Origin: Omnitrophica bacterium GWA2_41_15 | Lineage (GTDB): Bacteria > Omnitrophota > Gorgyraeia > Gygaellales > UBA12090 | DNA: 64,000 nt | Assembly: GCA_919902675.1 (NCBI GenBank) | Contig: CAKKRH010000013.1 | Span: forward strand, 47,239-111,238 | Direction of reading: 5' to 3' | Shown: piece after piece, positions 1,116 to 64,000 of the stretch | Numbering within the stretch: position 1 is the stretch's first letter | Layout: every line of letters begins with the position of its first letter | Notes under the pieces: generated by a model | What the model saw: the letters and a program-made list of their open reading frames with translations, nothing else | Told to the model about the DNA's origin: nothing | Database searches by the model: none | Program-made: the position numbers and the translations under genes

Positions 1116-3362
1116 CTATTTTTTCTTTTCAAGAACATTCTTTAGTTTATCCAAATCTGTCACCGGAAGATTGCAAGTATGCTTTTCACAAACATAGATT
1201 GCGGGCCTGTCCGCGATTAAGCTTTGTTCTTTGGTCCAAGAAGCGAGCGATAAGATCGGATCATCTTCGCTTGATGAGCGAAACAATAATATTTTATTGG
1301 GAAGAAAATTACTGTAGATCAATGACGTTGTTTGCTCAACAAAAGTGTCAGAGGATTTTTTAGAAACTATGGCAATTTCTTTGGTCGGCGACAAAGAATA
1401 GTCTAACGCGATAAGCATCTGGGTAAACGCGGTTGGAGCGCGCGACAGATTCGCCGCGATAGACTTCAATGAATTTTCTGCCGCGTATTCAAAATCTTTA
1501 TTCAAAGTCATGCGGTTAAGTCTTAACAGAACCAGGGCGGCCATGGAATTTCCTGACGGCAAGGCGCCGTCATAATATTCCTTGGGGCGGCTCTCAAGAA
1601 TCAACTCCGCGTCCGCCGCTGAAAAGAAAAATCCGCCGGCCGGCTTGTCTTCGAATAAGCGCGTCATTTCTCCGGCCAGGTTGACGGCCTCCTTAAAATA
1701 AATAACTTCAAACGTCGCCTCATATAAATCCAAAAGCCCTTCTATAAGGAAAGCGTAATCAGCGAGAAACCCCGGAATACCGGCCGAATCATCCCTGAAA
1801 CGATGCAGGACCCCGGAGTCTTTTGTTTTCAAGGTATTTAGAATAAAATCCGCGGCTTTCTTAGACGCGGAAAGATATCGGGCTTCATGCAAGATCTTAC
1901 CTCCAAGCGCCAAGCTTGATATCATCAGGCCGTTCCAATCCGTAAGAACTTTATCATCCCGGTGAGGCCGTAATCTTTTCTCGCGCTCAAGAAAAAGCTT
2001 TTGTTTTGAAACGGACAGAATAATTCCCGTGTCCTTTAATGACTTCTTAAAATACTCTGCCGTCTCTTCAATAGTACGGCTGATTGATAAGACATTCTTG
2101 CGCTCAAATTCATCGCGCGGGTCGTTAACTACATTGCCATTATCTTTAATCCCATAATGATAGCTGAATAATTCTCCCGCCTCTTTGCCTAAGACATCGA
2201 TGATCCCGCTTTTTGTCCAGACGTAATACGCGCCTTCTTTCTTCTTTTCCGGATATTTACTGTCAGGAGCGCTGTCGGCGTCTTCAGCTGAATAAAAACC
2301 GCCCTCAAGCGAAGTCATATCCTTAAGCACATAATCAAATATGTCCCTTGCCGCTTGAGCATACTTTTCCTTTTTAGTTATTTGATAGGCCTCAAGATAG
2401 GCTTTTGCCAGCATCGCCTGGTCATAGAGCATTTTTTCAAAGTGCGGCAAAAACCACTCCCTATCGGTAGAATACCTGTGAAATCCCCCGCCTAAATGGT
2501 CATGGATACCGCCGTCCGCCATATGGCTTAAGGTATTCTCAACCATCTCAAGGGCCTTTTTATTCCCTGTCTTGTAATAATAGCGCGAAAGCAATGAAAG
2601 CGTATGTGGAGAAGGGAACTTGGGGGCGATGCTAAATCCCCCATAGGTAGAATCGTATTCAGACGATAATCTCTCAAAGGCGCTGTCAAGAACCGTCTCC
2701 GGAACAACTTCTTGCGCTTTTAAGATAATAGACAAATTCTTCAGCTCATTCGTTAACTGTCCTGCTGATTGCGCGATTTCGCCTCTCTTGTTCTTCCAGG
2801 AATCTATGATAGACAAGAATAGCTTTTTTAAATAACCAGGGGGAAAGTAGGTGCCGCCGTAAAACGGTTTTTTATCTGGGGTGAGGAAGACATTCAGCGG
2901 CCATCCTCCGGAACCGGTCATAGCCTGCACGGCATTCATATAGATTGAATCAATATCAGGGCGCTCTTCACGGTCAACTTTTATCGCGACAAAAGACCGG
3001 TTAAGAATTTCGGCAATTTCAGGATTAGAATACGACTCCTCCTCCATCACATGACACCAATGACAGGTAGAGTAGCCAACAGAGAGGAATATGGGCTTAT
3101 CCTCCTTTTTTGCTTTCGCGAATGCCTCATCAGCCCACGGATACCAATCCACGGGATTATGAGCGTGCTGCAGAAGATAAGGGCTCTTCTCCTTAATGAG
3201 ACGATTAGTAAAACTCTCAGCCTTAACCACAGCAGCCTCCAGGATAAAAACAAATAAAATCAGATACCTCACAACTATATCAAATGCTTTACATACAAAG
3301 ATATATACTGCTTCTTCATATTTTGTTGATAAAATAGAACCGTCCCTTTTCCCAACAGGCAA
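1116..3362 (-). CDS. Thioredoxin-domain protein of the YyaL/DUF255 (SSP411-like) family
   Basis: 748-aa ORF with [38 protein letters not shown] and a long alpha/alpha-toroid-like C-terminal region. The real start may be the GTG at 3272, which would give a signal-like [18 protein letters not shown]. Confidence 0.85.
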
Positions 3363-3518
3363 TCTTAATTATAATATAAACGATTTGGCATTACTACCAA
3401 AAATTTAAGGCAACCCGCGGTGTTATGGAAATCTCCGTAAGACCGCGTGTTGGAAAAAAGATTAGGGAATTATGAAAGAGGGATTACGCGGATTTGGGCG
3501 ATAAAACAGCTTTGTCAC

Positions 3519-3803
3519 CTATCCGCAAAGCTTGAGCTTATTCTCTCTGGTAAGGCCCTTAATGCGGGATTCCCGCTTTTGGGCTTGGGATCTAGTGGGG
3601 TGTTCTTCGGAATGGATGAGTTTTACCGGCCAGCGAAATCTCGTATATCTGCCGCCGTTGCCTTCATTATGGTCTTTTACTCGACGAGGAAGGTTGTTGG
3701 TGACTCCGGTATAGAGCGTTTTATCACGGCACTCGATTATATAGACGTGCCAGGATATGTGAGGCAGGTGCTCCATGAAACGTGTGTTATATGTGGAAGG
3801 CAC
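3519..3803 (-). CDS. Small GIY-YIG nuclease family protein, copy 1 of 3
   Basis: WHVYIIECRDKTLYTGVTNNLPRRVKDHNEG...QAQKRESRIKGL is the GIY-YIG (YhbQ/UPF0213-like) signature. The likely true start is MEHLPH at 3776. Nearly identical at DNA level to 5823..6080 and 9430..9717. Confidence 0.8.
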   Translation of the reverse strand: MPSTYNTRFMEHLPHISWHVYIIECRDKTLYTGVTNNLPRRVKDHNEGNGGRYTRFRWPVKLIHSEEHPTRSQAQKRESRIKGLTRENKLKLCG

Positions 3804-3859
3804 TTCGCCCCCTTCGGGGGCTCAGTGCCCAATTTTTCGCCGAGAGGCGAAAAATTGGG
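3800..3859 (-). promoter_or_regulatory. Conserved double-hairpin leader upstream of GIY-YIG copy 1
   Basis: First hairpin: GCCCCC-TTC-GGGGGC (3807..3821), nested in CACT/AGTG. Second hairpin: a perfect 14-bp stem, CCCAATTTTTCGCC (3828..3841) / GAGA loop / GGCGAAAAATTGGG (3846..3859). The same sequence recurs at 9714..9773. Confidence 0.5.
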
Positions 3860-4114
3860 GTAGCTGGCTTTCGGACTTTAGGAACTTAATGATCAGCCAA
3901 CCGACGCCGTTTAATCCGTTGTATTATCAAACCGCATCCTGCTAAACTGCGAATATGCGACTTTACAAATTGGCAATTCAATTCGCAATCTGTAAAAATA
4001 GTATCGTATAGGGTATTGTATAGGAATCAGAAGCCCGATTGCGTATAAAAAGAACGTAACCCTTTGAAAATCCAATGCTTAATTTTTATACGATTCCCGG
4101 CAATGCGTATAAAA

Positions 4115-5605
4115 CTACTGGTATTCGATCACCGCGGCCAAGGCTGTCACGACTTCTTCAATCGTCTGCGGTGAAGCCTTACCGATAAATTTCACGAATT
4201 TCTGATAATCAACGCCTCTGACCTGCAAAACATCGACTGCGGATACCTTACTGAGATTATTTTGCGCATCCGGTTCGATTTTAACGTGCCAAATATTCCC
4301 CGCGAACGCCTGTTTCCATTCCGTGATGGGGCCAACGATCTTTATCGGTAATTTGCCTATGCCGTCAGAGCTGATAACGAGAACGGGCCTGTTTTTCTTG
4401 ATTTCCGCGCCAACTGCCGGATCGAGCTTTACTTCCCAAATCTCACCACGTTGAGGAATATTGATTTTACTGCTCAAAGAAGTCTCCTGCCTGCCAAGCG
4501 GATCTGGTGTGGTCATTATCATAGTCTGGTGCGGCCTTCTCCGCTTGCTGGGCAAGGATCCTTCGTCTCTCTTCAAGGAAAGCGGGGTCTTGTCCTCGAT
4601 CTTCTCGCCCAATAGTGTTTCGGCTTCGGATTGGCCGAGCAAAGATTCAGCAAAAGCTTTATAGACGTTTTGCTTCAACCACTCCGTCCTTTCAACAGGC
4701 AAAGGATTGGGTTCTTGTCGTTTCCATCCCATCTTATTAATGCATCTGAACCATTGGACGCAATATGACTCCGAGATCATATCCAACTCTTTAAGCCGGT
4801 ATAAAATCGATTGCATGCTCATTCCGAATTTCTTCTTCAAAATAAGCAACTCTTGCAGATCAATGGCCGTTCTTTTGTCGCCAACTTCGCGCGCGATCCA
4901 TTCTTTTGGAGCCAGAAATGCCGCTCCAAAGCGAAATGCGGCCTTTTCTTCATCGACTGACTGCGTTATTTTCAAGACCAAATGGCCTAATTCATGAGCC
5001 AAGTTTAATCGCTGTCTTTCTCCGGAAGTTCCTTTTTTGACGACGATGGCTACGCCTTTGACGTGATGATCCTCATATGCGACTGCGGCCATTCCATCGA
5101 ATTTATCATTCGCATCAACTTCCAAAATATGAATAAGCTTGTTCTCTAAGATTCCGGTGATGCTGGATATCTGATCTTTACCCAAGTTCCATTCGACGCG
5201 AATAGAATCAGCGGCTTTCTCGACTTCATCCAATCTGTTTATATGAAATTTCTGTATAGGAACATTCAGCGTCGCGGTGGGACAAACAAGATTCTGAATT
5301 TTTAACCGCTCTTCCAGACTTTCCTTAACAAGGTTTTCGATGCGCGATTGTTCCTTCTTTCTCAAAGCAGATCTCTTCCGGTAAGCAATGAACTCTATAC
5401 GGTATTTGGGTTCGGAGAGCAATTGAATCGTCTTCAGATTGAATGCGCTGGCGATCTTGGCTAAAACAGGGGCTGAAGGCTGATCGAGGCCTAACTCATA
5501 TTTTGAAATAGCCTGCTTCGTGACCACTCCACCGATGTGGGCCACTAATTCATCCAGAGACCATCCTCTGGACAAACGCAATTGTTTGATTTTTTGAGCT
5601 AACAT
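4115..5605 (-). CDS. Single-chain fusion: XRE-type HTH + ImmA/IrrE (M78, COG2856) metallopeptidase + MazF/PemK-like toxin domain
   Basis: N-terminus LAQKIKQLRLSRGWSLDELVAHIGGVVTKQAISKYELG is an XRE HTH. AHELGHLVL is the HEXXH motif. C-terminus RGEIWEVKLDPAVGAEIKKNRPVLVISSD...VSAVDVLQVRGVD is MazF/PemK. There is no stop codon between the domains. The start is set at the ATG at 5605 (SD GAGGGA) because the first 11 codons of the tracked ORF cover the promoter. Confidence 0.75.
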   Translation of the reverse strand: MLAQKIKQLRLSRGWSLDELVAHIGGVVTKQAISKYELGLDQPSAPVLAKIASAFNLKTIQLLSEPKYRIEFIAYRKRSALRKKEQSRIENLVKESLEERLKIQNLVCPTATLNVPIQKFHINRLDEVEKAADSIRVEWNLGKDQISSITGILENKLIHILEVDANDKFDGMAAVAYEDHHVKGVAIVVKKGTSGERQRLNLAHELGHLVLKITQSVDEEKAAFRFGAAFLAPKEWIAREVGDKRTAIDLQELLILKKKFGMSMQSILYRLKELDMISESYCVQWFRCINKMGWKRQEPNPLPVERTEWLKQNVYKAFAESLLGQSEAETLLGEKIEDKTPLSLKRDEGSLPSKRRRPHQTMIMTTPDPLGRQETSLSSKINIPQRGEIWEVKLDPAVGAEIKKNRPVLVISSDGIGKLPIKIVGPITEWKQAFAGNIWHVKIEPDAQNNLSKVSAVDVLQVRGVDYQKFVKFIGKASPQTIEEVVTALAAVIEYQ

Positions 5606-5822: not shown

Positions 5823-6080
5823 CTATCCGCAAAGCTTGAGCTTATTCTCTCTGGTAAGGCCCTTAATGTGGGATTCCCGCTTTTGGGCTTGGGATCTACT
5901 GGGGTGTTCTTCGGAATGGACGAGTTTTACCGGCCAGCGAAATCTCGTATATCTGCCGCCGTTGCCTTCATTATGGTCTTTTACTCGACGAGGAAGGTTG
6001 TTAGTGACTCCGGTATAGAGCGTTTTGTCACGGCACTCGATTATGTAGACGTGCCAGGGCGCAAGAGGCAGGTGCTTCAT
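5823..6080 (-). CDS. Small GIY-YIG nuclease family protein, copy 2 of 3
   Basis: 85 aa with the same WHVYIIECRDKTLYTGVTNNLPRRVKDHNEG core. It begins 22 bp after the fic stop and lacks the hairpin leader of copies 1 and 3. Confidence 0.8.
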   Translation of the reverse strand: MKHLPLAPWHVYIIECRDKTLYTGVTNNLPRRVKDHNEGNGGRYTRFRWPVKLVHSEEHPSRSQAQKRESHIKGLTRENKLKLCG

Positions 6081-6102
6081 AATTTATGGTATATAACTAT
6101 TT

Positions 6103-7104
6103 TTAATTCAGGCGGTATCGAACGGCCCTTGCCGCGCCTTCTCTGGTGACGATGCCCGAACGGACAAGCGGACTAATGAGCTGATTGACGCGGGCGCGAT
6201 TGATCTTCATAGTTTTCCTGATTTCTGGCGCGCCTAAAACATCTTTTCGTTTTAACAAATCCAAAAGCTCTTCCTGTTTAGGCGTCAACGAAATCCCTTG
6301 CAACCGAAGTGTCCCGGCCTTGATCCTGTTTTGTGCATCCTCATGCGCCCACGCCAAACCTTGGGCAACATATTCCACCCAGCGCGTAAAGTCCCGATCC
6401 ATGTCACGTGTCTGCTGGATCATGTCATAATAACGAGGCCGATCCTGCGCAAAGAAATCATCAAGGCCAAGGGTGCAAAGAGGATCAAAACCCTTTTCCC
6501 AAAGAAGCCACTGCCCGGCCGCGCGAGCCACGCGGCCATTGCCATCCACAAAAGGATGGATCGTCAGAAACTCGTGCTGAAAGATGGCACTACGGATAAC
6601 CAGATGCAAGGATTCATCCTTCGCCCAAGCAAAAAGGGCTTTCATGCGGCCCGCAACCTGCGCGGGAGGCGGCGGAGTAAAAATAACTTTATTGCGGGCA
6701 TCCACGATATAGTTCTGGACACTGCGATACTGGCCCGTTCGATCTTTGGCCAAAAGCCCCTTGATCATGCGGCCATGCACAGCCAAAAGCCCAAGTTCAG
6801 TGACCGGCTTATGTTTGGTCTTTAATATCTGCCGCATGGCTTCAACGCAATTGGCGACCTCTGTCTTCTGCTTTTCTTCAACCAAAAGATCCTTGCCGTC
6901 AACCACGGCCCTGACCTGCGCCAAAGACAGGAGATTGCCTTCAATCCATGTGGATGAATGAACGCTCCGGGCAAAAGCATCCCTCTCCAAAGGGGCCTTA
7001 ACAGACACTTTCAGCCGCGAGCTTCTGACAAGCGCACCCGTGACAGCAATCTGCTCAAACAGTTTTAAAAGGTGTGGCGTTATCCGATATTGGGCTTTAA
7101 ACAT
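6103..7104 (-). CDS. Fic/DOC family protein with an N-terminal inhibitory helix motif and a C-terminal winged-helix
   Basis: HPFVDGNGRVARAAG is the Fic core HxFx(D/E)GNGRxxR. STWIEGN fits the (S/T)xxxE(G/N) autoinhibition motif. The C-terminus LTPKQEELLDLLK...RARVNQLISPLVRSGIV is HTH-like. Confidence 0.85.
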   Translation of the reverse strand: MFKAQYRITPHLLKLFEQIAVTGALVRSSRLKVSVKAPLERDAFARSVHSSTWIEGNLLSLAQVRAVVDGKDLLVEEKQKTEVANCVEAMRQILKTKHKPVTELGLLAVHGRMIKGLLAKDRTGQYRSVQNYIVDARNKVIFTPPPPAQVAGRMKALFAWAKDESLHLVIRSAIFQHEFLTIHPFVDGNGRVARAAGQWLLWEKGFDPLCTLGLDDFFAQDRPRYYDMIQQTRDMDRDFTRWVEYVAQGLAWAHEDAQNRIKAGTLRLQGISLTPKQEELLDLLKRKDVLGAPEIRKTMKINRARVNQLISPLVRSGIVTREGAARAVRYRLN

Positions 7105-7271: not shown

Positions 7272-7410
7272 CTCACAAGGAACTCACAAGACGCTTTATC
7301 TAACCTTATCGCGCTGAGTAAGTTACGAAACAATTACGCTTTCTATATTTTTTGTGGAATTGTTTTGCAACCCAATACTGAGCAACGAGTTACATAGAGC
7401 GTCTTTTAAT
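7272..7410. repeat. 139-bp imperfect palindromic repeat, copy A (attC-like or MITE-like)
   Basis: Direct repeat of 9183..9322 with scattered substitutions. The arms AAGACGCTTTATCTAAC ... GTTACATAGAGCGTCTT are inverted repeats. Inner arms pair as well (GAAACAATTAC / GGAATTGTTTT). Confidence 0.8.
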
Positions 7411-9182: not shown

Positions 9183-9322
9183 AATCACAAAAATCACAAG
9201 ACGCTTTATCTAACCTTATCGCGCTGAGTGAGTTACGAAACAATTACGCTTTCTATATTTCTTTCGCGGAATTGTTTTGTAACCTAATGCTGGGCAATGA
9301 GTTACATAGAGCGTCTTTTAAT
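9183..9322. repeat. 139-bp imperfect palindromic repeat, copy B
   Basis: Same element as 7272..7410. Together the two copies bracket the abiEi-abiEii pair. Confidence 0.8.
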
Positions 9323-9429: not shown

Positions 9430-9717
9430 TTATCTCTCGCATAATTCGAGCTTCTTGGCTCTGGTAAGGCCCTTGATGTAGGATTCCCGCTTTTGGGCTT
9501 GGGATCTACTGGGGTGTTTTTCGGAATGGACGAGTTTTACAGGCCAACGGAATCTCGTATATCTGCCGCCGTTGCCTTCATTATGGTCTTTTACTCGACG
9601 AGGAAGGTTGTTGGTGACTCCGGTATAGAGCGTTTTATCACGGCACTCGATTATATAGACGTGCCAGGATATGTGAGGCAGGTGCTCCATGAAACGTGTG
9701 TTATATGTGGAAGGCAC
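9430..9717 (-). CDS. Small GIY-YIG nuclease family protein, copy 3 of 3
   Basis: 95 aa with the same core as copies 1 and 2. The likely start is at 9690. The hairpin leader is repeated at 9714..9773 (14-bp stem at 9742..9755 / 9760..9773). Confidence 0.8.
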   Translation of the reverse strand: MPSTYNTRFMEHLPHISWHVYIIECRDKTLYTGVTNNLPRRVKDHNEGNGGRYTRFRWPVKLVHSEKHPSRSQAQKRESYIKGLTRAKKLELCER

Positions 9718-10396
9718 TTCGCCCCCTTCGGGGGCTCAGTGCCCAATTTTTCGCCGAGAGGCGAAAAATTGGGGTCGCTGGTGGCTTGGTAAAGGTAAAA
9801 GGTTTATTATTGTTAGATGGATTTCCCTGCCAAATACTACCGCGACTTATACTATTACTGCTACTCCTCCGCCTAAAAATTGCTCTTTAGGAAATAAAAT
9901 CAGATTCGCGAGGCAATCTCTCGGAAAGACTCAAAAAACGCTTTCTGAAATGATTAAGCATCCCCGGAGCTTAATCAGCCGTTATGAACAAGACAAAATC
10001 AGAAAACCCAATACCAAAGTCCTGCTTGACATCGCAAAGTCTCTGAAGGTCAGCCCTGATAAGCTAATCTCTATCCAGCAATTCCAACCAATTGGAAATA
10101 AGGCAGAAATTGATAAGCTTTATGCCTTTCTCAAAACCCCGCATAACTTCGGCAAAAAACTAAGAGACTTACGCCTTCGGGCAAATATTGAACAAAAGGC
10201 CTTGGCCCTGGAAGTCGGGATTAACCGCGAAAGTATCCGGCGCTATGAAAGGAATATCACCCGGCCAAGCAAAGCGATTTTAGCCAAAATCATAGAGGCT
10301 TTAAAAGACTCTTCCCGCAAGCTGCAAGAGAAATATTACCATAATAAAGGCGCTGACTCAAGTAAATTTGTAGCAAAAATTGAAAGGAGGAATTGA
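9689..10396 (+). CDS. Tandem XRE-type HTH protein (two HTH_XRE domains); start uncertain
   Basis: The two HTH units are IRFARQSLGKTQKTLSEMIKHPRSLISRYEQDK and LRDLRLRANIEQKALALEVGINRESIRRYERN. The only in-frame ATG upstream of the first HTH lies inside the GIY-YIG repeat, antisense to the GIY-YIG start. The 5' 200 nt may therefore be repeat-derived or untranslated. Confidence 0.55.
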   Translation: MKRVLYVEGTSPPSGAQCPIFRREAKNWGRWWLGKGKRFIIVRWISLPNTTATYTITATPPPKNCSLGNKIRFARQSLGKTQKTLSEMIKHPRSLISRYEQDKIRKPNTKVLLDIAKSLKVSPDKLISIQQFQPIGNKAEIDKLYAFLKTPHNFGKKLRDLRLRANIEQKALALEVGINRESIRRYERNITRPSKAILAKIIEALKDSSRKLQEKYYHNKGADSSKFVAKIERRN

Positions 10397-45852: not shown

Positions 45853-45952
45853 TAGTTGACAGTTGACAGATGACAGTTGACAGATGAAGATGATAACTCA
45901 CAGTTAACAGATGATAGTTGACAGTAAACAGATCACAGATTACAGTTGACAG
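45853..45952. repeat. Degenerate heptanucleotide tandem array (GTTGACA / GATGACA ... about 14 units)
   Basis: GTTGACAGTTGACAGATGACAGTTGACAGATGAAGATGATAACTCACAGTTAACAGATGATAGTTGACAGTAAACAGATCACAGATTACAGTTGACAG. The array supplies the last codons of the four-helix-bundle gene. Confidence 0.85.
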
Positions 45953-46310
45953 AATCAGAAGATAATGAACTAATAAGACCGTTAATCATTTTTGCTAACT
46001 CGTTGCATTCCTTAGTTAATTCTTCAGAGATCGCTTTCTTAACATAATCCTCTCTAAGAGATATTTCTAACAATGGAACACATTCATAAATAGAACCTCT
46101 GGCAACTCTGAGAAACTGAATAAAATCTTTTTTATGATACCTGCTACTGCCCTCTGCTATATTACAGGATACAGATACCGCGGCCCTTCTCATTTGAGAC
46201 GTAAGGCCAAATATCTCATTATTTGGAAAATTTTTAGTTATTTGGTAAACCTTATCGGCAAAATTAATTGCTTTTTTGTATACTTCCAATTTCTCAAAGC
46301 CAAACCCCAT
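45933..46310 (-). CDS. Four-helix-bundle protein (TIGR02436; '23S rRNA intervening-sequence protein' family)
   Basis: FEKLEVYKKAINFADKVYQITKNFPNNEIFGLTSQMRRAAVSVSCNIAEGSSRYHKKDFIQFLRVARGSIYE is the family signature. Confidence 0.85.
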   Translation of the reverse strand: MGFGFEKLEVYKKAINFADKVYQITKNFPNNEIFGLTSQMRRAAVSVSCNIAEGSSRYHKKDFIQFLRVARGSIYECVPLLEISLREDYVKKAISEELTKECNELAKMINGLISSLSSDSVNCNL

Positions 46311-46350
46311 AGCTTATCTGTGAACTGTCAACCGTGAACTGTGAACTAAT
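46311..46350. repeat. Heptanucleotide array (CTGTGAA / CTGTCAA), inverted relative to 45853..45952
   Basis: The sequence is CTTATCTGTGAACTGTCAACCGTGAACTGTGAACTAAT. Its reverse complement contains GTTGACAGTTCACAG. Confidence 0.8.
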
Positions 46351-55155: not shown

Positions 55156-56271
55156 TTAATATGACGCGCCGGCTAATTCGTATTGCCGGCTGTAATTGAT
55201 TATTCCGTCAGAGATGGCTTCGGCAATCTGCTGGCGGTAGAAATTATTCCTTAAATATTTTTCCTCTTTAGGGTTAGACAAGAAACCGGTCTCAATCAAA
55301 ACCGCGGGAATATGAGCGCCTTTTAAGACATAAAACGGCGCGCCTTTTACCCCCAAAATCTTTAAACCCATATTCCTCTCGGCTGACTCGCAGATATTCT
55401 GAGCCAGGCGGATAGATTCCAGGCGGCTGGAAGTATAAACCATATCCCAAAGCGTAGTTTTAAGATCCAGGGAATTGCCGTAAAAAGAACTGCTGTCTAT
55501 ATTCAAATCAGCGCTCTTGGCCGAAAAAATGGCCCGGGAGTAATCATTCACTTTCTCGGTTATATAATAAACCTCAAAGCCGTTTAATTTACCCGAAGCG
55601 GCGGAATTAGAGTGGACGCTGATGAATAAATCCGCTCTTGAACGGTTGGCGATATCCGCCCTCCCCTGGAGGCTGATAAATTTATCCGTGGAACGGGTCA
55701 TCACCGCTTCAATGCCCTGGGCTTTTAAAAACTGGGCTAAGCGCCGGGCGATATCCAGGTTCACATCCTTTTCCCTTAAGCCGGTTTTTCCTATGGCCCC
55801 GGGGTCGTGGCCGCCGTGGCCGGCATCAATCACTACCTTTTTTATCTGTTTTTCCAGGATATATTTCGGTTTTTCTTCAGGGATAGCCTCCAAATAAAAC
55901 TTATCAATCACCTTTTCTTTAAACTTTAGAGGCACCGCGGTAAATCCGTTATGGGTAATCACCGGATACTCGATATCCAAAGGCAGGCCATTAACCAGAA
56001 CCACTGAGGCATCCAGTAAAAGCCTGGCTTCAACATTCGCCTTTCTTAAAGTAACCTGCCTGCCGATATAATCATACTCCCACAAGATATTAAAATGCCG
56101 GCAGAGGCTTAGAAGCGGGATATAAACGGTATTATTGACGGAAAAACTTTCTACCGGAAGCCCTGTTTTTTGAATACGGCCGGTTGTGGCGCAGCCGGTC
56201 AAAAGAACAGATAACAGATAACAGATAACAGATAACAGAACGAGATGCTGTTTCTTAGATAAAATCATCAT
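55156..56271 (-). CDS. N-acetylmuramoyl-L-alanine amidase (Amidase_3) with an N-terminal stalk domain
   Basis: VVIDAGHGGHDPGA...ISVHSNS...ETGFLSN. The lipobox-like signal is LLTGC. The signal-peptide region LLSVICYLLSVLL is encoded by an ACAGATA heptamer array (56207..56241). Confidence 0.85.
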   Translation of the reverse strand: MMILSKKQHLVLLSVICYLLSVLLTGCATTGRIQKTGLPVESFSVNNTVYIPLLSLCRHFNILWEYDYIGRQVTLRKANVEARLLLDASVVLVNGLPLDIEYPVITHNGFTAVPLKFKEKVIDKFYLEAIPEEKPKYILEKQIKKVVIDAGHGGHDPGAIGKTGLREKDVNLDIARRLAQFLKAQGIEAVMTRSTDKFISLQGRADIANRSRADLFISVHSNSAASGKLNGFEVYYITEKVNDYSRAIFSAKSADLNIDSSSFYGNSLDLKTTLWDMVYTSSRLESIRLAQNICESAERNMGLKILGVKGAPFYVLKGAHIPAVLIETGFLSNPKEEKYLRNNFYRQQIAEAISDGIINYSRQYELAGASY

Positions 56272-58785: not shown

Positions 58786-59874
58786 TTAAATCGCGGGAAC
58801 TATCTCGTTCCAGTCTTTTTGAAATACAACCACCAGGTCGCCTCCGGAAGAATAGGTGAAGGCAGGCGGCATAGGCGCGAAAATATTATCATTATAATTA
58901 ATGGTGATGCCGCTTCCATTACCCATGGAAAAATTACCCCCCGCCAATATTGTGCCGTTAAAAGTAGAATTTTTCACATCATCAAAAGTGATATTATTTT
59001 GGGCTAAAATCAATCCATTTATGGTGCTATTCTGCAGGCCGATCTTTTGGCTGGGAATGCCGGTCGCGCTGGTGCTCATATTATTCTTGGCTGCCAGCGC
59101 CGGGTAATTAGTAAGAGGACTGGGGGTTACCTGGACATTATCGGCCCTGTTGACAAACTGGATATCGCTATCCGAAAAGATAGAGCCGTTTATTATGGCA
59201 TTATTGCCTATAGTAACCCCCCTGGTTACATACCATACACCGCTGTAGGTACCGTTTTCAAAGGTATAACTGCCGGTGATAAGCTGTCCGGAGGCTAAAG
59301 CCAGGCTCTTGTAATAATCGAAGTCTAAAGTGGGATTAATCATCGGAAAATTCTCGGTAAGAGTGCCGTTGATAGTCATACCCGCGTAATTTGTTATATG
59401 CACATGACAGCTGATATTACCGTTTATTACCCCGGTTGAGCCGGTAAAATCAACCGTACTGCCGTCAGCATGAATACTGCGCACCAAAACCGAAGAGGAA
59501 AAGGCCGCGCTGGCCCCTATCTGTCGGCTCATTGTGTTAACCGTGCCCAAAGAAGTAAAAGCATAAATACTTCCGCTTTTAACGGCGCTTACGGAATAAA
59601 CGCCGTTACCCAGAGAACCGCTAATTGTAGTAGGGCTAGTTTGGTAATTAGCGTCGTTTTTTAAGGTATATAAAGCCTTTTGCAACCCCGCCTCAGCCAG
59701 CCAGAGGGCCTGACTGCCGGACATATCATATCCTGAACCTTTTAGCCGCAGGGAACTCATATATAAGAACGCGATTACCACGGCAGTTAAGGTGGTCAAT
59801 ATTATGAAGGTAAGTAATAATGCTGTTCCTTTCTTCGCAAACGAGCGAACGGGGATAGCGGACGGCTTGATCAT
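58786..59874 (-). CDS. PilX-like minor pilin / pilus-tip associated protein
   Basis: The N-terminus KGTALLLTFIILTTLTAVVIAFLYMSS is PilX_N-like. It is followed by a Gly/Asn/Thr-rich beta-helix-like body. Confidence 0.5.
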   Translation of the reverse strand: MIKPSAIPVRSFAKKGTALLLTFIILTTLTAVVIAFLYMSSLRLKGSGYDMSGSQALWLAEAGLQKALYTLKNDANYQTSPTTISGSLGNGVYSVSAVKSGSIYAFTSLGTVNTMSRQIGASAAFSSSVLVRSIHADGSTVDFTGSTGVINGNISCHVHITNYAGMTINGTLTENFPMINPTLDFDYYKSLALASGQLITGSYTFENGTYSGVWYVTRGVTIGNNAIINGSIFSDSDIQFVNRADNVQVTPSPLTNYPALAAKNNMSTSATGIPSQKIGLQNSTINGLILAQNNITFDDVKNSTFNGTILAGGNFSMGNGSGITINYNDNIFAPMPPAFTYSSGGDLVVVFQKDWNEIVPAI

Positions 59875-60497
59875 AGGTTTCTCGGCCTCACCTGCGTCCT
59901 TGACCTTATGGTTTCATCGCCTCTTTTTATACTCAAATCCAGGGTAATTAAATTAGCGCTTATCGACAAATCTGAAGTCGCCGGAGGCAATGCTTCAGTA
60001 ATTATAATCGAGCCAGAGCCATAGGTGAATGTTCCGCTTATGCCGCCGGAAAGCTCAGCTTTCCTTAATTGATACGAACCCTGGCTAAAGCTCGGGGGAT
60101 AAGAGTCATTGGCGTTATAAAAATAATAAATATAATAGGCGATTAGGTTATGGGTAAACCTGATCTCGTCATTATTAACAGACTGGGCCTGCCTTGCCTT
60201 CCTTAGATCCCGGACCATTTCTTCAATTCCCCTGTCTAAGGCTATGTCAATGCCTGTCCTGGTTTCCTGGCTGTGCCAGCTTAAAAGCACCGCGCGAAAA
60301 ACAAAGGCGCTCACTCCCACCAAAACCACCAGCATTAAAATCGTAATAATAAGTTCTATTAGCGTGAACCCCGTTACACCCCGCCCTGAAGGACGGGGCT
60401 TTCTTGATGATCTAATTTTTATTTGCCATTTATCCCCGCTTTGAGAAGCGGGGCTTTCTGGGTGTAACGGGGTGAATCCCTGACGCGTTTTTTTCAA
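59871..60497 (-). CDS. Prepilin-type N-terminal cleavage/methylation domain protein (minor pilin)
   Basis: The prepilin signal is G-FTLIELIITILMLVVLVGV. The true start may be internal to the tracked ORF. Confidence 0.7.
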   Translation of the reverse strand: MKKTRQGFTPLHPESPASQSGDKWQIKIRSSRKPRPSGRGVTGFTLIELIITILMLVVLVGVSAFVFRAVLLSWHSQETRTGIDIALDRGIEEMVRDLRKARQAQSVNNDEIRFTHNLIAYYIYYFYNANDSYPPSFSQGSYQLRKAELSGGISGTFTYGSGSIIITEALPPATSDLSISANLITLDLSIKRGDETIRSRTQVRPRNL

Positions 60498-60539: not shown

Positions 60540-60923
60540 TTAATAATTCGCCACCAGCGTGGTCAGGGTAATATTGGCTTGGCCTCTCAAAACATTCCAA
60601 GACACGGTTACATCTACCGGCATAGGGTTTTGGCCTTCACCTACATTAACCGCGGTATTAAAATTGGAAAAGTGAGAATCCGTTGTGGGGCCGCTATCCG
60701 CGAGGCTGGCGAATGGAGTATTTTTTATTTCCTCCATTTTTGCCTGGGCGATATTTAAGGCTAAATCAATATTTTCAATATCGCTCGTGGCGGACATACC
60801 CGCGCTGAAGGCCCAGATTATCGCGATAACCCCAGCGGTAAAAATAAGCAGGGCAATCATAAGCTCTAACAGACTAAAGCCATCCCGAGCCTTCCCCGGC
60901 TGATACCTAACATTTAGTAACAT
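60540..60923 (-). CDS. Prepilin-type minor pilin (PilV-like)
   Basis: DGFSLLELMIALLIFTAGVIAI. Confidence 0.7.
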   Translation of the reverse strand: MLLNVRYQPGKARDGFSLLELMIALLIFTAGVIAIIWAFSAGMSATSDIENIDLALNIAQAKMEEIKNTPFASLADSGPTTDSHFSNFNTAVNVGEGQNPMPVDVTVSWNVLRGQANITLTTLVANY

Positions 60924-60965
60924 CGGAATTTTACCCGCTAAGACAGTGAATTTGAGACCGTTGCA

Positions 60966-61082
60966 AAATCCTAAAACCTTTATCTTGAAATATTTCCGTA
61001 TAAGATCCTTCGTCGGGACTTACATCCCTCCTCAGGATGAGATTGTTTAAAAACAGAGTTTTTCAACAATCTCAATTTAGGG
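60966..61082 (-). repeat. Structured intergenic element of about 120 nt, copy 1 (after the major pilin gene)
   Basis: Homologous to 62835..62959. On the minus strand it has a 16-bp hairpin GAGATTGTTGAAAAAC-TCT-GTTTTTAAACAATCTC, then GGGAT-GTAA-GTCCC. Confidence 0.7.
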
Positions 61083-61526
61083 CTGTAAATCCTGGCCGAT
61101 GTTAGAGGCATAAATACAGCTTGAGCCGTTGGTTTCAACCACGGCATCGCTGGTAATAACAGCGCTTCCGTTTCCAGCCGGGCCAACCGAATAAATAATA
61201 TAAAATTTGCTGTTGGTCCCGCCCATTACATATACATAATCAGCTCCTGTGCCGCTGAAGGGGTCGGTAGGCACATAAGTTATAATGCTTGGGACGGCCG
61301 CGGCTAAAGCGGTCTGGAGAGCGGCGGCAGTAGTAGCCGGGTAAGTATTACTGTTGTGAATATAATAACTCTCTACCGCGGTTTGCAGTGTCCGCAACTC
61401 GCCTTTGGCCTTGGCGATATTTCCCTCATCCTGCATACCCTTAAAGCGGGGCAAAGAAATCCCGATTAAGATAGAGATTACCGCAATAACAATCAACAAT
61501 TCAATCAAGGTAAAACCTTTCTTCAT
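61077..61526 (-). CDS. Major pilin / GspG-like pseudopilin
   Basis: MKKGFTLIELLIVIAVISILIGISLPRFKGMQDEGNIAKAKGELRTLQTAVESY. Confidence 0.85.
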   Translation of the reverse strand: MKKGFTLIELLIVIAVISILIGISLPRFKGMQDEGNIAKAKGELRTLQTAVESYYIHNSNTYPATTAAALQTALAAAVPSIITYVPTDPFSGTGADYVYVMGGTNSKFYIIYSVGPAGNGSAVITSDAVVETNGSSCIYASNIGQDLQP

Positions 61527-61547
61527 CTTCCCTCCTTTTTAAATTAG

Positions 61548-61596
61548 TCTGTGATCTGTAGACTGTGAACTGTGAACTATCAACTGTGAACTAATC
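61548..61596. repeat. Heptanucleotide array (CTGTGAA family) between pilC and the pilin gene
   Basis: CTGTGATCTGTAGACTGTGAACTGTGAACTATCAACTGTGAACTAATCA. Confidence 0.8.
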
Positions 61597-62809
61597 AATG
61601 CCTGATGATCTTAACCATATCAAAAATCGGGATTAATACCGAGGCCATAATCAAGGCCACCACCGCCCCCATAACCGCCAATAAGAGCGGCTCAATCAGC
61701 GCGGTCAGCTTCTTGAGCGAATAACTCACCGCGGTATCATAAAAATCAGCTATCTTATTCAACATCCCGTCCAAATTGCCGCTTTCCTCTCCCGCGGAAA
61801 TCATCTGCACCGCGTCTAAGGGAAATTCTCCGCTTACTTTTAAAGGCGCGGAAAGCCTTTCTCCCTGCTCAACCGAAGCCTTTAAATTTGCCATTACCTG
61901 AGCCATCACCTGATTGCCAATCACCTCCTTAGTTATATCCAAGGAACGTAAAACCGGGACACCGCTGGATAATAAAACCGCCAAAGTGCGGCTAAGCCTT
62001 GAGACATATATTTTACGCGCCAGATCCCCGATTACCGGGATTTTAAGCGTTAAGCGGTCAAAGTGAAATTTTCCGCTTTTAGTTTGGGTGTATTGGACGG
62101 CCAGCCAGGATAATATGCCAAAGCCCAAGATAATCAGATACCAAAATCTCTTAATAATTACCCCAAATGAAAAGAGTATCTGGGTAACCAAGGGCAGTTT
62201 TAGCCCGGCGCTTAAAAATAAATCGGCAAACTTCGGCATAATGAAGGTTACGATAAAAACTATCACTATGATAGAGGCTATAAAGAGGATGATTGGATAA
62301 AAAAGCGCCCCCTTGATCTTCTGGGATAATTCCTCTCTGGCCTCAGAGAAGGCGGCGAATTTCTTCAGCACATCATTAAGCTTCCCGGACTCCTCTCCGG
62401 CTTTAACCATATTCACGAATAATTTACTGAACACCTTGGGATGGCGGCTGAGGCTTTCCGAGAAAGAGCTTCCGGATTCAACCGCCCGCCAAAGCTCGCC
62501 CAAAACATTTTTCAGCCTTTTATTTGCCGTCTGGGCCTCAATGGCGCGCAGGCTGATTAAAAGGGTGATTCCGGATTCCAGCAGATTAGCCAGCTGAAAA
62601 TTAAAGACTATCAAATCCTGAGGATTTATCCGGCGCAAGTGCCTGAGCATGCCCTCCAGGTCAATTTCTTTTTTGGCCGGGCTTATGGAAACAGCCATAT
62701 ACCCCATCTTGCGCAGTTTAACGCCCACCTCATCGGCTGAGGCCGCCTCAAGCGCGCCCTTAACTAATTTACCGCTTTCGTCTCTGGCTTTATATAAATA
62801 ATCCGGCAA
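61595..62809 (-). CDS. pilC: Type II secretion / type IV pilus platform protein (GspF/PilC family)
   Basis: Two T2SSF repeats and three TM segments. It has a TTG start with a GGAGG SD. Confidence 0.85.
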   Translation of the reverse strand: MPDYLYKARDESGKLVKGALEAASADEVGVKLRKMGYMAVSISPAKKEIDLEGMLRHLRRINPQDLIVFNFQLANLLESGITLLISLRAIEAQTANKRLKNVLGELWRAVESGSSFSESLSRHPKVFSKLFVNMVKAGEESGKLNDVLKKFAAFSEAREELSQKIKGALFYPIILFIASIIVIVFIVTFIMPKFADLFLSAGLKLPLVTQILFSFGVIIKRFWYLIILGFGILSWLAVQYTQTKSGKFHFDRLTLKIPVIGDLARKIYVSRLSRTLAVLLSSGVPVLRSLDITKEVIGNQVMAQVMANLKASVEQGERLSAPLKVSGEFPLDAVQMISAGEESGNLDGMLNKIADFYDTAVSYSLKKLTALIEPLLLAVMGAVVALIMASVLIPIFDMVKIIRH

Positions 62810-62834
62810 TTAAAACCTCCGTCAATAAATGGAT

Positions 62835-62959
62835 AAATCCTAAACCCTAAAAACTCCAATCTTGAGACATTTCCGCATAAGATCCTTCGTCGGGATTCAC
62901 ATCCCTCCTCAGGATGAGAGCGTTTAAAAACAGGGTTTTTCAACGCTCTCAATTTAGGG
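62835..62959 (-). repeat. Structured intergenic element of about 120 nt, copy 2 (between pilB and pilC)
   Basis: On the minus strand: GAGAGCGTTGAAAAAC-CCT-GTTTTTAAACGCTCTC, then GGGAT-GTGA-ATCCC. The stem differences relative to copy 1 are compensatory. Confidence 0.7.
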
Positions 62960-62975
62960 TTTATCATTTTGTTGC

Positions 62976-64000
62976 CTACTCCTTTGGGGTGAGGCGCAAA
63001 ACCTCTTCAATGGTAGTTATCCCGGCCTTGGCCTTTTCTAAACCGTCCTGTCTCAGGCTTAAGCCGCCCGAGGAACGGCAGTGCCTTTTTATTTCCTCGC
63101 TGGAAGCCTTGGCCACAATCAGATTATGCAGTTTTTCATCCATAGCCATTAGCTCATAAATACCTACCCGGCCTTTGTAGCCGGTATCCTTGCACTTTAA
63201 ACAACCTTTCCCCCGGTAAAACTTGACCCGCGAATCCGGACCGCCCTCTAACCCTATTTCTTTTAAGACCTCTGATGAGGGAATGTATTCTTCTTTACAA
63301 TCCTTACAAACCACCCTGACTAAGCGCTGGGCCAGGACCGCTCCCAGCGAAGAGGTAATCAGAAACGGCTCAATGCCCATATCTATCAAGCGGGTTATTG
63401 CCCCGGAGGCATCATTAGTATGCAGAGTAGAAAAAACCAGATGGCCGGTCAAAGCCGCCTGAATAGCAATTTCAGCCGTCTCTTTATCCCTTATTTCACC
63501 TACCATTATCACATCCGGGTCCTGGCGTAAAATTGACCTTAAGCCGGTGGCAAAATTAACCCCGGCCCGGGGCTCGACCTGAATCTGCCGGATTCCGTTA
63601 AGATGATATTCTACCGGATCCTCAATGGTAACGATATTCTTCCGGGAAGAGTTAATGGCATTCAGTGAAGCATAAAGGGTAGTGGTCTTGCCGCTTCCGG
63701 TAGGCCCGGTTACCAGGATTATCCCGTGCGGACGCTGAATCAGCTTTTCATAACTTTTAACCGCCTCTTTAGGTAAGCCTAAATCGGCTAAACCCATAAC
63801 CGTACTGCTTCTATCCAAAAGGCGCATCACCACATTTTCCCCGTAGACTGTGGCCATTACCGAAACCCGGATATCTATCTGGCGGTTTTCCACCTTCATC
63901 TGGAAACGGCCGTCCTGGGGGGCGCGGCGCTCGGCAATGTTCAAGCCGGCCAATAGCTTGACCCGCGAAACCACTGCCGACTCTAAATATTTAGGCAAAG
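62976..64000 (-). CDS. pilB: Type II/IV secretion ATPase (GspE/PilB family); the N-terminal part runs off the window end
   Basis: Walker A is VTGPTGSGKTTT, the Asp box is IVTIEDPVE, Walker B is IMVGEIRD and the His box is LVFSTLHTN. The C-terminal tetracysteine is CKDC...CLKC. The frame stays open to position 64000. Confidence 0.9.
   Translation of the reverse strand, partial: LPKYLESAVVSRVKLLAGLNIAERRAPQDGRFQMKVENRQIDIRVSVMATVYGENVVMRLLDRSSTVMGLADLGLPKEAVKSYEKLIQRPHGIILVTGPTGSGKTTTLYASLNAINSSRKNIVTIEDPVEYHLNGIRQIQVEPRAGVNFATGLRSILRQDPDVIMVGEIRDKETAEIAIQAALTGHLVFSTLHTNDASGAITRLIDMGIEPFLITSSLGAVLAQRLVRVVCKDCKEEYIPSSEVLKEIGLEGGPDSRVKFYRGKGCLKCKDTGYKGRVGIYELMAMDEKLHNLIVAKASSEEIKRHCRSSGGLSLRQDGLEKAKAGITTIEEVLRLTPKE

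Follow-up and report, generated by a model that had tools for sequence, protein, structure and literature searches.

Two palindromic copies in a pilus operon

The DNA analysed here is a 64-kb stretch of Omnitrophica bacterium GWA2_41_15 (contig CAKKRH010000013.1), called the window throughout, whose high end carries a type IV pilus operon on the minus strand. Within this operon, two homologous stretches of 110 nt with 87% identity lie in register on the strand of the pilus genes, at 60973-61082 and 62850-62959, 1.9 kb apart and in the same orientation. The window has their 18-nt core word at these two places and nowhere else, whereas shuffles predict 0.01 occurrences, and a search of the window for the core unit and for either inverted repeat of the element returned nothing beyond these two copies. 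A sequence-only reading of the same DNA had described them as copies of about 120 nt of an operon RNA element that could set the ratio of pilin to assembly proteins. The homology is real; the ends had to be revised, as copy 1 reaches 60954 and includes a 3' inverted repeat, and copy 2 is truncated. According to our analyses, both copies most probably are insertions of a small, non-autonomous mobile palindromic repeat, i.e., a miniature inverted-repeat transposable element (MITE) with a core resembling repetitive extragenic palindromes (REPs), and not a dedicated pilus regulator. In this lineage, the element has inserted one time directly behind the pilin stop codon and a second time between pilB and pilC. 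The features at the locus are given below, with gene domains taken from calls on locus L122.

62976..64000, minus strand, continuing past the window end: pilB-like ATPase gene, 3' part (T2SSE; 565 aa in L122)
62842..62950, minus strand: copy 2 of the element, in the pilB-pilC spacer; 3' end truncated, no 3' inverted repeat
62916..62950, minus strand: hairpin 1 of copy 2, GAGAGCGTTGAAAAAC-CCT-GTTTTTAAACGCTCTC
62882..62915, minus strand: REP-like core hairpin of copy 2, ATCCT-GAGGA-GGGAT-GTGA-ATCCC-GACGA-AGGAT
61595..62809, minus strand: pilC-like platform gene (T2SSF)
61077..61526, minus strand: major pilin gene (N_methyl, T2SSG)
61074..61078, minus strand: 5' direct repeat AAATT of copy 1 (target-site duplication; the copy at locus L118 has AACTT on both sides)
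60954..61073, minus strand: copy 1, full-length MITE-like element of 120 nt, GAGA...TCTC, directly after the major pilin gene; without counterpart in the orthologous operon L134
61039..61073, minus strand: hairpin 1 of copy 1, GAGATTGTTGAAAAAC-TCT-GTTTTTAAACAATCTC; its 5' arm doubles as the 5' terminal inverted repeat
61005..61038, minus strand: REP-like core hairpin of copy 1, ATCCT-GAGGA-GGGAT-GTAA-GTCCC-GACGA-AGGAT; fits a widespread family
60954..60972, minus strand: 3' terminal inverted repeat of copy 1, AGGATTTTGCAACGGTCTC; 14/22 positions match the reverse complement of the 5' end
60949..60953, minus strand: 3' direct repeat AAATT of copy 1
60540..60923, minus strand: next pilin-like gene, downstream of copy 1

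The pilin stop codon TAA (61077-61079) shares its final two bases with the 5' direct repeat of copy 1. Downstream of copy 2, the sequence TTTAGGATTTATCC... runs into the pilC ribosome-binding site. Additional pilin-like genes follow on the minus strand from 60923 downwards.

The insertion is seen most directly in orthologous operons. In four of them (loci L131, L132, L134 and L135, with PilC 90-93% identical to that of the window) the element was not found. The pilB-pilC spacer measures 166 nt in the window against 93, 54, about 27 and 54 nt in these four operons, respectively, and the spacer from the pilin to the next gene 153 nt against 94, 243, 36 and 52 nt. L134 is without an insert in either spacer, and its post-pilin site can be lined up with the window, base by base, to either side of the element. 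With a slash at the junction, the empty site CCATAAATT/TACTG stands opposite CCCTAAATT[120 nt]AAATTCACTG in the window; in a longer alignment L134 reads CAGCCATAAATT/TACTG...GGGTAAAACTGTGATGTTA and the window CAGCCCTAAATT[120 nt]AAATTCACTG...GGGTAAAATTCCGATGTTA, and base for base CAGCCATAAATT/TACTGATTTTCGCCTATAGTGGGTAAAACTGTGATGTTA corresponds to CAGCCCTAAATT[120 nt]AAATTCACTGTCTTAGCGGGTAAAATTCCGATGTTA. The empty site carries a single TAAATT, and from the alignment it follows that the extra material in the window consists of the element plus a second AAATT.

Furthermore, the element has the anatomy of a transposable unit. Scanning metagenome contigs with the core and its immediate flanks yielded five more copies in groundwater contigs (loci L117-L121). 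Including window copy 1, four copies are complete (the others at L117, L118 and L121) and extend over 120-122 nt from GAGA to TCTC. Their terminal inverted repeats are imperfect, of about 19 bp (GAGAGCGTTGAAAAACCCT / AGGGTTTTGCAACGGTCTC), and when the last 22 nt are reverse-complemented they agree with the first 22 nt at 14-17 positions. As flanking pentamers, window copy 1 and L117 have AAATT/AAATT, L118 has AACTT/AACTT and L121 has AAATT/TAATT. The matching C on both sides of L118 and the empty site in L134 show these pentamers to be a target-site duplication and not a part of the inverted repeat. The element hence shows the features of a MITE: it is non-coding and shorter than about 300 bp, has terminal inverted repeats and a target-site duplication, and its dispersed copies show presence/absence polymorphism.

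The seven copies are found in six different contexts. Four of the further copies lie on separate contigs of one Hainich assembly; the fifth, more diverged, comes from another sample. Among their neighbours are a CsoR-like repressor with a heavy-metal efflux system, a RecQ helicase, membrane proteins and others, identified by eye except for the scanned RecQ and Y1_Tnp domains. The copies at L118 and L121 are antisense to both flanking genes. The same DNA as the window pilus region occurs in several Hainich groundwater assemblies, and the nearest named PilC homologues belong to Candidatus Omnitrophota.

At L120 the diverged element copy (4317-4349) is preceded by an IS200-like Y1_Tnp gene (1744-2382) and recQ (2383-4272), and followed by a 70-aa Y1_Tnp-like fragment (4429-4641); the palindromes GGGGACGCTCCCC and GGGGACGTTCCC are located upstream of the first Y1_Tnp gene. 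A link of the element to transposases of this type, i.e., REP-associated tyrosine transposases (RAYTs), was considered and rejected. Phmmer searches with both L120 queries against the open reading frames (ORFs) of loci L001-L121 and the window matched only the queries. The link is further undercut by the L120 Y1_Tnp gene having its own GGGGAC-type palindromes, as in tyrosine transposases associated with terminal inverted repeats. Likewise, the element carries no GTAG tag, as would be expected of RAYT-linked REPs.

Besides the element, the operon has two other, unrelated palindromes, of which one is found in this strain and the other in its relatives, and judged from these sequences the pilus-operon spacers appear to be permissive landing sites with quick turnover. 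The pilB-pilC spacers of L132 (3203-3256) and L135 (1330-1383) hold a different small hairpin or repeat (CCTCCCCTTACCAAGGGGAGG, AATCCTCCCCTTACCAAGGGGAGGCGGGGWGGGGTWAAG). The repeat AATCCTCCCCTTACCAAGGGGAGGCGGGGWGGGGTWAAG is also present as two tandem copies in the pilB-pilC spacer of L131 (3908-4000) and after the pilin gene in L135 (3153-3204); it was not found in the window. In the sister lineage L132, and in the same way in L133, a canonical inverted dimer TGTCATCCTGAGCGCTAGCGAAGGATCTC...CTCAGAATGGACA of the widespread repeat described below is placed 27 nt past the pilin stop (about 5040-5130 in L132), nested within a further palindrome, CTCAGACTGTGTCA...TGACACAGTCTGA. In the window itself, an unrelated palindromic insertion of about 117 nt is found at 60363-60478 on the minus strand, within the 5' end of a minor pilin gene (ORF 59871-60497). 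Its inverted repeats read CCCCGTTACACCC / GGGTGTAACGGGG, and both of its GC hairpins adjoin AGAAAGCCCCG. This insertion is in frame and duplicates the prepilin motif 'GFT' (MKKTRQGFT-[39 aa]-GFTLIEL), which recalls the palindromes inserted in frame in Rickettsia. The 39 residues are missing from the L131 orthologue, which is 91% identical.

Other repeats were noted in the window. Directly 5' of the major pilin gene (61549-61595), and also at 46318-46350, 45854-45965 and 56209-56251, near tRNA genes, there are runs of a 7-nt repeat (CTGTGAA / CAGTTGA type), and analogous CAGCTGT runs follow the pilin gene in L131 and L132. They could be regulator binding sites or reflect simple-repeat turnover. 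Three copies of a 300-nt repeat, 86-95% identical, are present at 3524-3823, 5828-6127 and 9438-9737, and a pair of repeats of about 130 nt at 7281-7410 and 9191-9322.

Folding and coding potential of the element

On the operon strand, hairpin 1 reads GAGAGCGUU-G-AAAAAC / 3-nt loop / GUUUUU-A-AACGCUCUC, and the second hairpin AUCCU-GAGGA-GGGAU-GNRA-(A/G)UCCC-GACGA-AGGAU, with a 5x5 internal loop that can be drawn as G-A, A-G, G-C, G-A, A-G. Both hairpins fold as had been proposed, with the correction that hairpin 1, described as a 16-bp stem with a triloop, consists in the window copies of 15 pairs plus one G/A mismatch; 16 perfect pairs are seen in L118, L119 and L121. Folding energies of the minus strand are -36 and -47.7 kcal/mol for the two copies (z -4.0 and -4.5). 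Folding of the plus strand is comparable (z -3.0 and -5.5), as expected from a DNA palindrome.

The compensatory differences noted between the main stems of the two copies were confirmed. They amount to a double change, GC/GC against UU/AA, which recurs in L121, and the variants GC/GC and TT/AA of hairpin 1 are sub-types that are each common to copies at different loci. The search for covariation in additional homologues gave the same picture. Over the seven close copies, 96% of cells are paired and 11 predicted pairs are changed on both sides, compared with 3.1 +/- 1.3 in shuffled and 0-2 in slid controls. The element hairpins hence are under constraint. This conservation does not imply an RNA regulator, because the copies are paralogues that spread from master copies, and because palindromic mobile elements need hairpins for their own propagation. 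The hairpins would thus be kept by constraints of the element itself, with one strand folding as single-stranded DNA or RNA during propagation or persistence.

A small protein encoded across the copies is next to negligible as an explanation, as the sequence-only reading had already concluded. ORFs of 67 and 68 aa do exist (62764-62967 and 60980-61186, minus strand), and one of them is called as a gene in public assemblies. Their codons differ between the two copies at six positions, all of them non-synonymous and none synonymous; other copies are interrupted by in-frame stops, and the two ORFs run out of frame across parts of pilC and the pilin gene, respectively. Homologous proteins were not found: in a search of 5.8 billion proteins with the element ORF, its sole match was the ORF itself.

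The core hairpin as part of a widespread repeat family

The second hairpin forms a 34-nt core palindrome, AT-CCTGAG-GAG[5-bp helix, GNRA loop]CGA-CGAAGG-AT, which fits into a wider family with the consensus YGTC-AT-CCTGAG-(C-GNA-G loop, or GAG-helix-CGA)-CGAAGG-AT-CT. Scanning one genome per GTDB species (596 Gb, two strands) with the pattern TCCTGAGGAG-N10-16-CGACGAAGGA, a sample thus ascertained on 20 fixed bases with seven gap lengths permitted, found at least 116 loci, against about 8 calculated to occur by chance. Among the matches listed, to which the host and tag counts below refer, lineages were read from the record titles of metagenome-assembled genomes (MAGs). Acidobacteriota contribute many; further hosts are Chloroflexota, Patescibacteria (Uhr-, Falkow- and Roizmanbacteria), Omnitrophota, Planctomycetia, Verrucomicrobiia, Gamma- and Betaproteobacteria, Latescibacterota, Armatimonadota, Dormibacterota, Binatus, Eisenbacteria, Endomicrobia, Synergistaceae and Lachnospiraceae. 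Mis-binned MAGs could inflate this list; we nevertheless regard the breadth as real, since the loci span 32% to well over 60% G+C. Several MAGs contribute three to six loci each.

Sequence outside the selected bases is conserved as well. The upstream tag, on which the pattern did not select, is present in 106/129 instances (TGTCA 78, CGTCA 28), TCT or CCT stands directly 3' of the family unit, again unselected, and an inverted partner ending in CTCAGRATGAC lies within 220 nt in 73/129. A looser scan over 834 kb of loci from the core scan returned 287 units; the 123 pairs of neighbouring units are mostly inverted with tags outward (82), the others being inverted with tags inward (22) or in tandem (19). 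Units lie within long open frames in 37% of cases, compared with 84% of random positions. The repeat YGTCATCCTGAG...CGAAGGATCT gives rise to many spurious small ORFs.

The family has two forms. In the simple form, ATCCTGAG-CGAAG-CGAAGGAT, eight stem positions starting with AT include two G-A mismatches and enclose a 5-nt loop. Loops are mostly of the C-GNA-G type (CGAAG 24, CGCAG 7, CGGAG 6, CCGAAGG 7). The DNA mini-hairpin d(GCGNAGC) reportedly, from work associated with Hirao and Yoshizawa, is extraordinarily stable, and by analogy the C-GNA-G loops hint that the fold might matter as single-stranded DNA. In the extended form, to which both window units belong, the loop is replaced by GAG-helix-CGA. 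This inner helix occurs in 103 distinct sequences, with 317 Watson-Crick, 36 G-T, 12 A-C and 53 other pairs. Since its sequence is free in the family, the alternative pairing among ATCCT, GGGAT, ATCCC and GGATC segments that had been suggested as a possible switch is not conserved, and we discard it. The window units and their close copies carry a TCTC-A tag, near the CCTC variant but part of hairpin 1.

Database searches added little to this picture. No Rfam family matched at the elements (whole window at gathering thresholds; a 251-nt region at E <= 10) or at the units in 11 other loci. The core pattern had no match in 2.9 million viral contigs, so carriage by phages is not supported. Literature searches by DNA words and by peptides that the repeat encodes (VILSEAKDL and similar) gave nothing relevant, a keyword search gave only general REP papers, and a paper describing the palindrome was not found.

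Some arrangements of the repeat deserve mention. In one Acidobacteriota MAG (CAWCBB01), L114 (about 480-1150) and L061 (about 2240-2930) hold the repeat in tandem arrays, whose five to six units are 143-163 nt long and each combine an inverted dimer with a spacer. In the Omnitrophota MAG JAHILY01, the core at L098 (770-805) and L102 (2350-2385) is preceded by an abutting hairpin, GAGCAGTCG...CGACTGCTC-A; this is the two-hairpin layout of the window element with a different stem sequence. Another CGTC-tagged palindrome, CGTCATCCTTAGGG...CCCTAAGGATCAT, is found between smpB and a GIY-YIG gene at L122 4973-5010, about 3.8 kb past the high end of the window.

Family units also occupy spacers of core operons, namely 23S-5S rRNA, S10-L3, the spacers after ftsZ and after an lptB-like gene, and the pilus operon. 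One Omnitrophica MAG has the core hairpin between its 23S and 5S rRNA genes (L021 4772-4805, minus strand), and the 3' part of that 23S gene gives a sub-threshold Rfam group I intron match (39.7 bits against a gathering threshold of 50, E 6e-07). One variant, hairpin + CGCGAATTNA + TCCTGAGGAG-GCGC..GCGCC-GACGAAGGATC, is common to this MAG and two Planctomycetia MAGs (L013 and L046); by eye from translations, it lies between the S10 and L3 genes at L013 (274-305) and after the lptB-like gene at L046 (5884-5917). In two Patescibacteria MAGs (L096 309-342 and L113 561-593) the repeat is placed about 20 nt past the stop of ftsZ (...LEIPAFIRKKMM, then the stop codon), a gene identified by eye, and in L096 nrdR follows. 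The ftsZ-adjacent repeat could be either an old insertion kept since divergence or a hot spot.

Mobile element or pilus regulator

Several observations weigh against reading the two copies as insertions of a mobile repeat. Among the sequences compared, none proved to hold a transposase with inverted repeats like those of the element, and in the window and the collected loci the inverted repeat was not found outside the elements; we hence infer mobility from the insertion polymorphism and the anatomy of the element. The copies number only two in the 64-kb window and four in a single assembly of a related metagenome. In the close copies, each of the six inner loops is of the GNRA type. Between co-directional genes, extended units are sense in 21 and antisense in 5 cases by crude, heuristic gene calls. 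For low-GC loci, in which ORFs can be called more reliably, sense outnumbers antisense about 8 to 1. The inner helix has 36 G-T pairs against 12 A-C mismatches. Sense bias and G-T excess show a strand-specific constraint, which could reflect a function at the RNA level. Two explanations fit these results, namely RNA-level selection or transposition as single-stranded DNA on the lagging-strand template, which would also give sense bias as most genes are co-oriented with replication. Finally, by the published description, the window units are atypical for known CGTC-tagged families, having a TCTC tag and a helix instead of a loop of 4-5 nt.

The operon regulator of the sequence-only reading, a dedicated cis-acting RNA that sets the stoichiometry of pilin to assembly proteins, would find a place in several of these features. 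Both copies are sense, at spots useful for differential expression (after the major pilin and between pilB and pilC), they are non-coding, and they combine stable folds (-36 and -48 kcal/mol, z about -4) with compensatory changes and GNRA inner loops; also, other hairpin-formers occupy the same spacers in relatives, which could mean selection for some stem-loop there. We still consider such a regulator very unlikely, and the empty sites refute it for the most part. Its position is not conserved, as orthologous operons with 90-93% identical PilC are without it, other copies reside in unrelated contexts and at L118 and L121 are antisense to both neighbours, and the element comes with inverted repeats as well as a target-site duplication. 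The operon strand lacks a terminator-like U-run, no Rfam family matches, and the switch pairing is not conserved. An intrinsic terminator or promoter was rejected separately: consensus-scan counts equal the shuffle expectation, and none lies on the operon strand at either copy. A local segmental duplication by recombination within the operon, involving no mobility, would account for two copies 1.9 kb apart in the same orientation, and yet is very unlikely in view of the five copies on other contigs in unrelated contexts, the different hairpin-1 sub-types of the window copies, each found elsewhere, and the target-site duplication that copy 1 has of its own. A self-cleaving ribozyme, hammerhead-like or of a new class, is extremely unlikely. 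The motif CUGAGGA...GAA recalls the hammerhead CUGAnGA...GAAA, with CUGAGGA 5' of a G-C-closed helix and GACGAA 3' of it, and the module is widely distributed and arranged in tandem arrays like some ribozyme families. However, neither a hammerhead nor another ribozyme model matched at E <= 10 (251 nt), nor in six multi-unit loci; the helix is followed by GACGAA and not GAAA, and no arrangement of stems I and III fits. CUGAG and CGAAGG, moreover, are paired (AUCCU/AGGAU, or with the inverted partner CUCAGGAUGAC) instead of forming a single-stranded core.

Two further readings we regard as improbable, though less so than the foregoing. The mobile element might have been domesticated and kept in this lineage for a stabilising or processing effect of its hairpins on the polycistronic pilus mRNA, in the manner of malE-malF REPs and Correia elements. 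The sense orientation immediately 3' of the pilin stop codon and the sense bias of the family between co-directional genes speak for this. The element is also identical among several independent assemblies from one population, and each related lineage carries a palindrome of some sort at these spacers. On the other side, L134 manages without an insert in either spacer, and retention in a single population is equally expected of a neutral recent insertion. The core, AUCCUGAG-GAG-[variable helix]-CGA-CGAAGGAU, might otherwise be a functional single-strand module recognised by a conserved factor. We leave room for this because of the near-identical sequence in MAGs labelled as more than 12 lineages, the freely covarying helix, the sense bias and the core-operon spacers. 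Such a factor could be the mobilising enzyme of CGTC-type REPs acting on lagging-strand single-stranded DNA, or else a ribonuclease or RNA-binding protein to which the module would serve as a general intercistronic signal for processing or stabilisation.

The core family compares best with the CGTC-tagged REPs (Di Nocera, De Gregorio and Rocco 2013, BMC Genomics 14:522; PMC3733652). In the description of these repeats, an unpaired tag CGTC, often TGTC or CCTC, precedes stems of 8-9 bp whose first two pairs are almost always A-T, with loops of 4-5 nt and a 3-nt tail; inverted dimers predominate, in-frame intragenic copies occur occasionally, and no transposase is described as associated. Examples given there are Neisseria dRS3 and Rickettsia RPE-4 and RPE-6, and the intragenic peptides VIPAKAGI and RHSELVSGS quoted there back-translate to GTCAT...ATC units built like GTCATCCTGAGCGAAGCGAAGGATC. 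As far as that description goes, our family shares the tag, the A-T stem start, the stem of 8-9 positions, the 4-5-nt loop (in simple units) and the short tail. Its units likewise are mostly inverted dimers, mostly extragenic, occasionally in frame within genes and without a linked transposase. In contrast, and again compared by description only, the family stem CCTGAG/CGAAGG has two tandem G-A mismatches, many units including both window units have an extra covarying helix in place of the loop, and Acidobacteriota, Chloroflexota, Patescibacteria, Omnitrophota and others lie outside the five host phyla listed for CGTC repeats. The window units further differ in being single and embedded each in a larger MITE. 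For this build there is a precedent in QMITE2 of Coxiella burnetii (PMC5896051), a MITE of 150-190 bp with terminal inverted repeats, direct repeats and a REP inside, located in 3' untranslated and intergenic regions, truncated copies of which resemble bare REPs. By this precedent we class the window element among the MITEs that harbour a REP-like palindrome, although QMITE2 has a GTAG-type REP and direct repeats of 7-11 nt of variable sequence, whereas the window element is shorter (120-122 nt), has a 5-bp AAATT-like duplication and shows no sequence similarity to it.

Correia elements (NEMIS, Neisseria), ERIC (enterobacteria) and Chunjie (Geobacter) are further MITEs of small size, about 100-160 bp, which have inverted repeats and duplicate a short target. 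Elements of the Correia/ERIC type insert within operons and are co-transcribed, their long hairpins can alter mRNA processing and stability, and their presence or absence differs between close relatives; Correia elements duplicate TA and carry IHF sites and promoters. The window element shares the small MITE build, the operon insertion and the presence/absence polymorphism with these three, but no sequence relationship. A functional counterpart of what the sequence-only reading proposed is the E. coli REP, or BIME, in malE-malF, where a hairpin is said, from work attributed to Newbury and colleagues in 1987, to protect the upstream message from 3' exonucleases and so skew the product ratio. 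There, too, a palindromic repeat lies between cistrons; it is GTAG-tagged and RAYT-linked, and its effect was shown experimentally, whereas here such an effect is only conceivable. As both copies are on the sense strand, they presumably are co-transcribed, and they may incidentally act as stable intercistronic hairpins that affect mRNA decay. The hairpin 3' of the pilin cistron could then shield the pilin message from 3' exonucleases, as a by-product of the insertion.

For the window, the insertion of a mobile palindromic repeat thus removes a false lead. The element informs on genome parasites and intergenic turnover in Omnitrophota, not on pilus regulation, and at most it would be an accidental modifier of operon mRNA stability. 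To our knowledge, no mobilising enzyme is known for CGTC-type REPs. The palindrome YGTCATCCTGAG...CGAAGGATCT is near-identical across Acidobacteriota, Chloroflexota, Patescibacteria, Omnitrophota, Planctomycetota, Verrucomicrobiota, Proteobacteria and other phyla, and such a broad and strand-biased family is good material for finding this enzyme.

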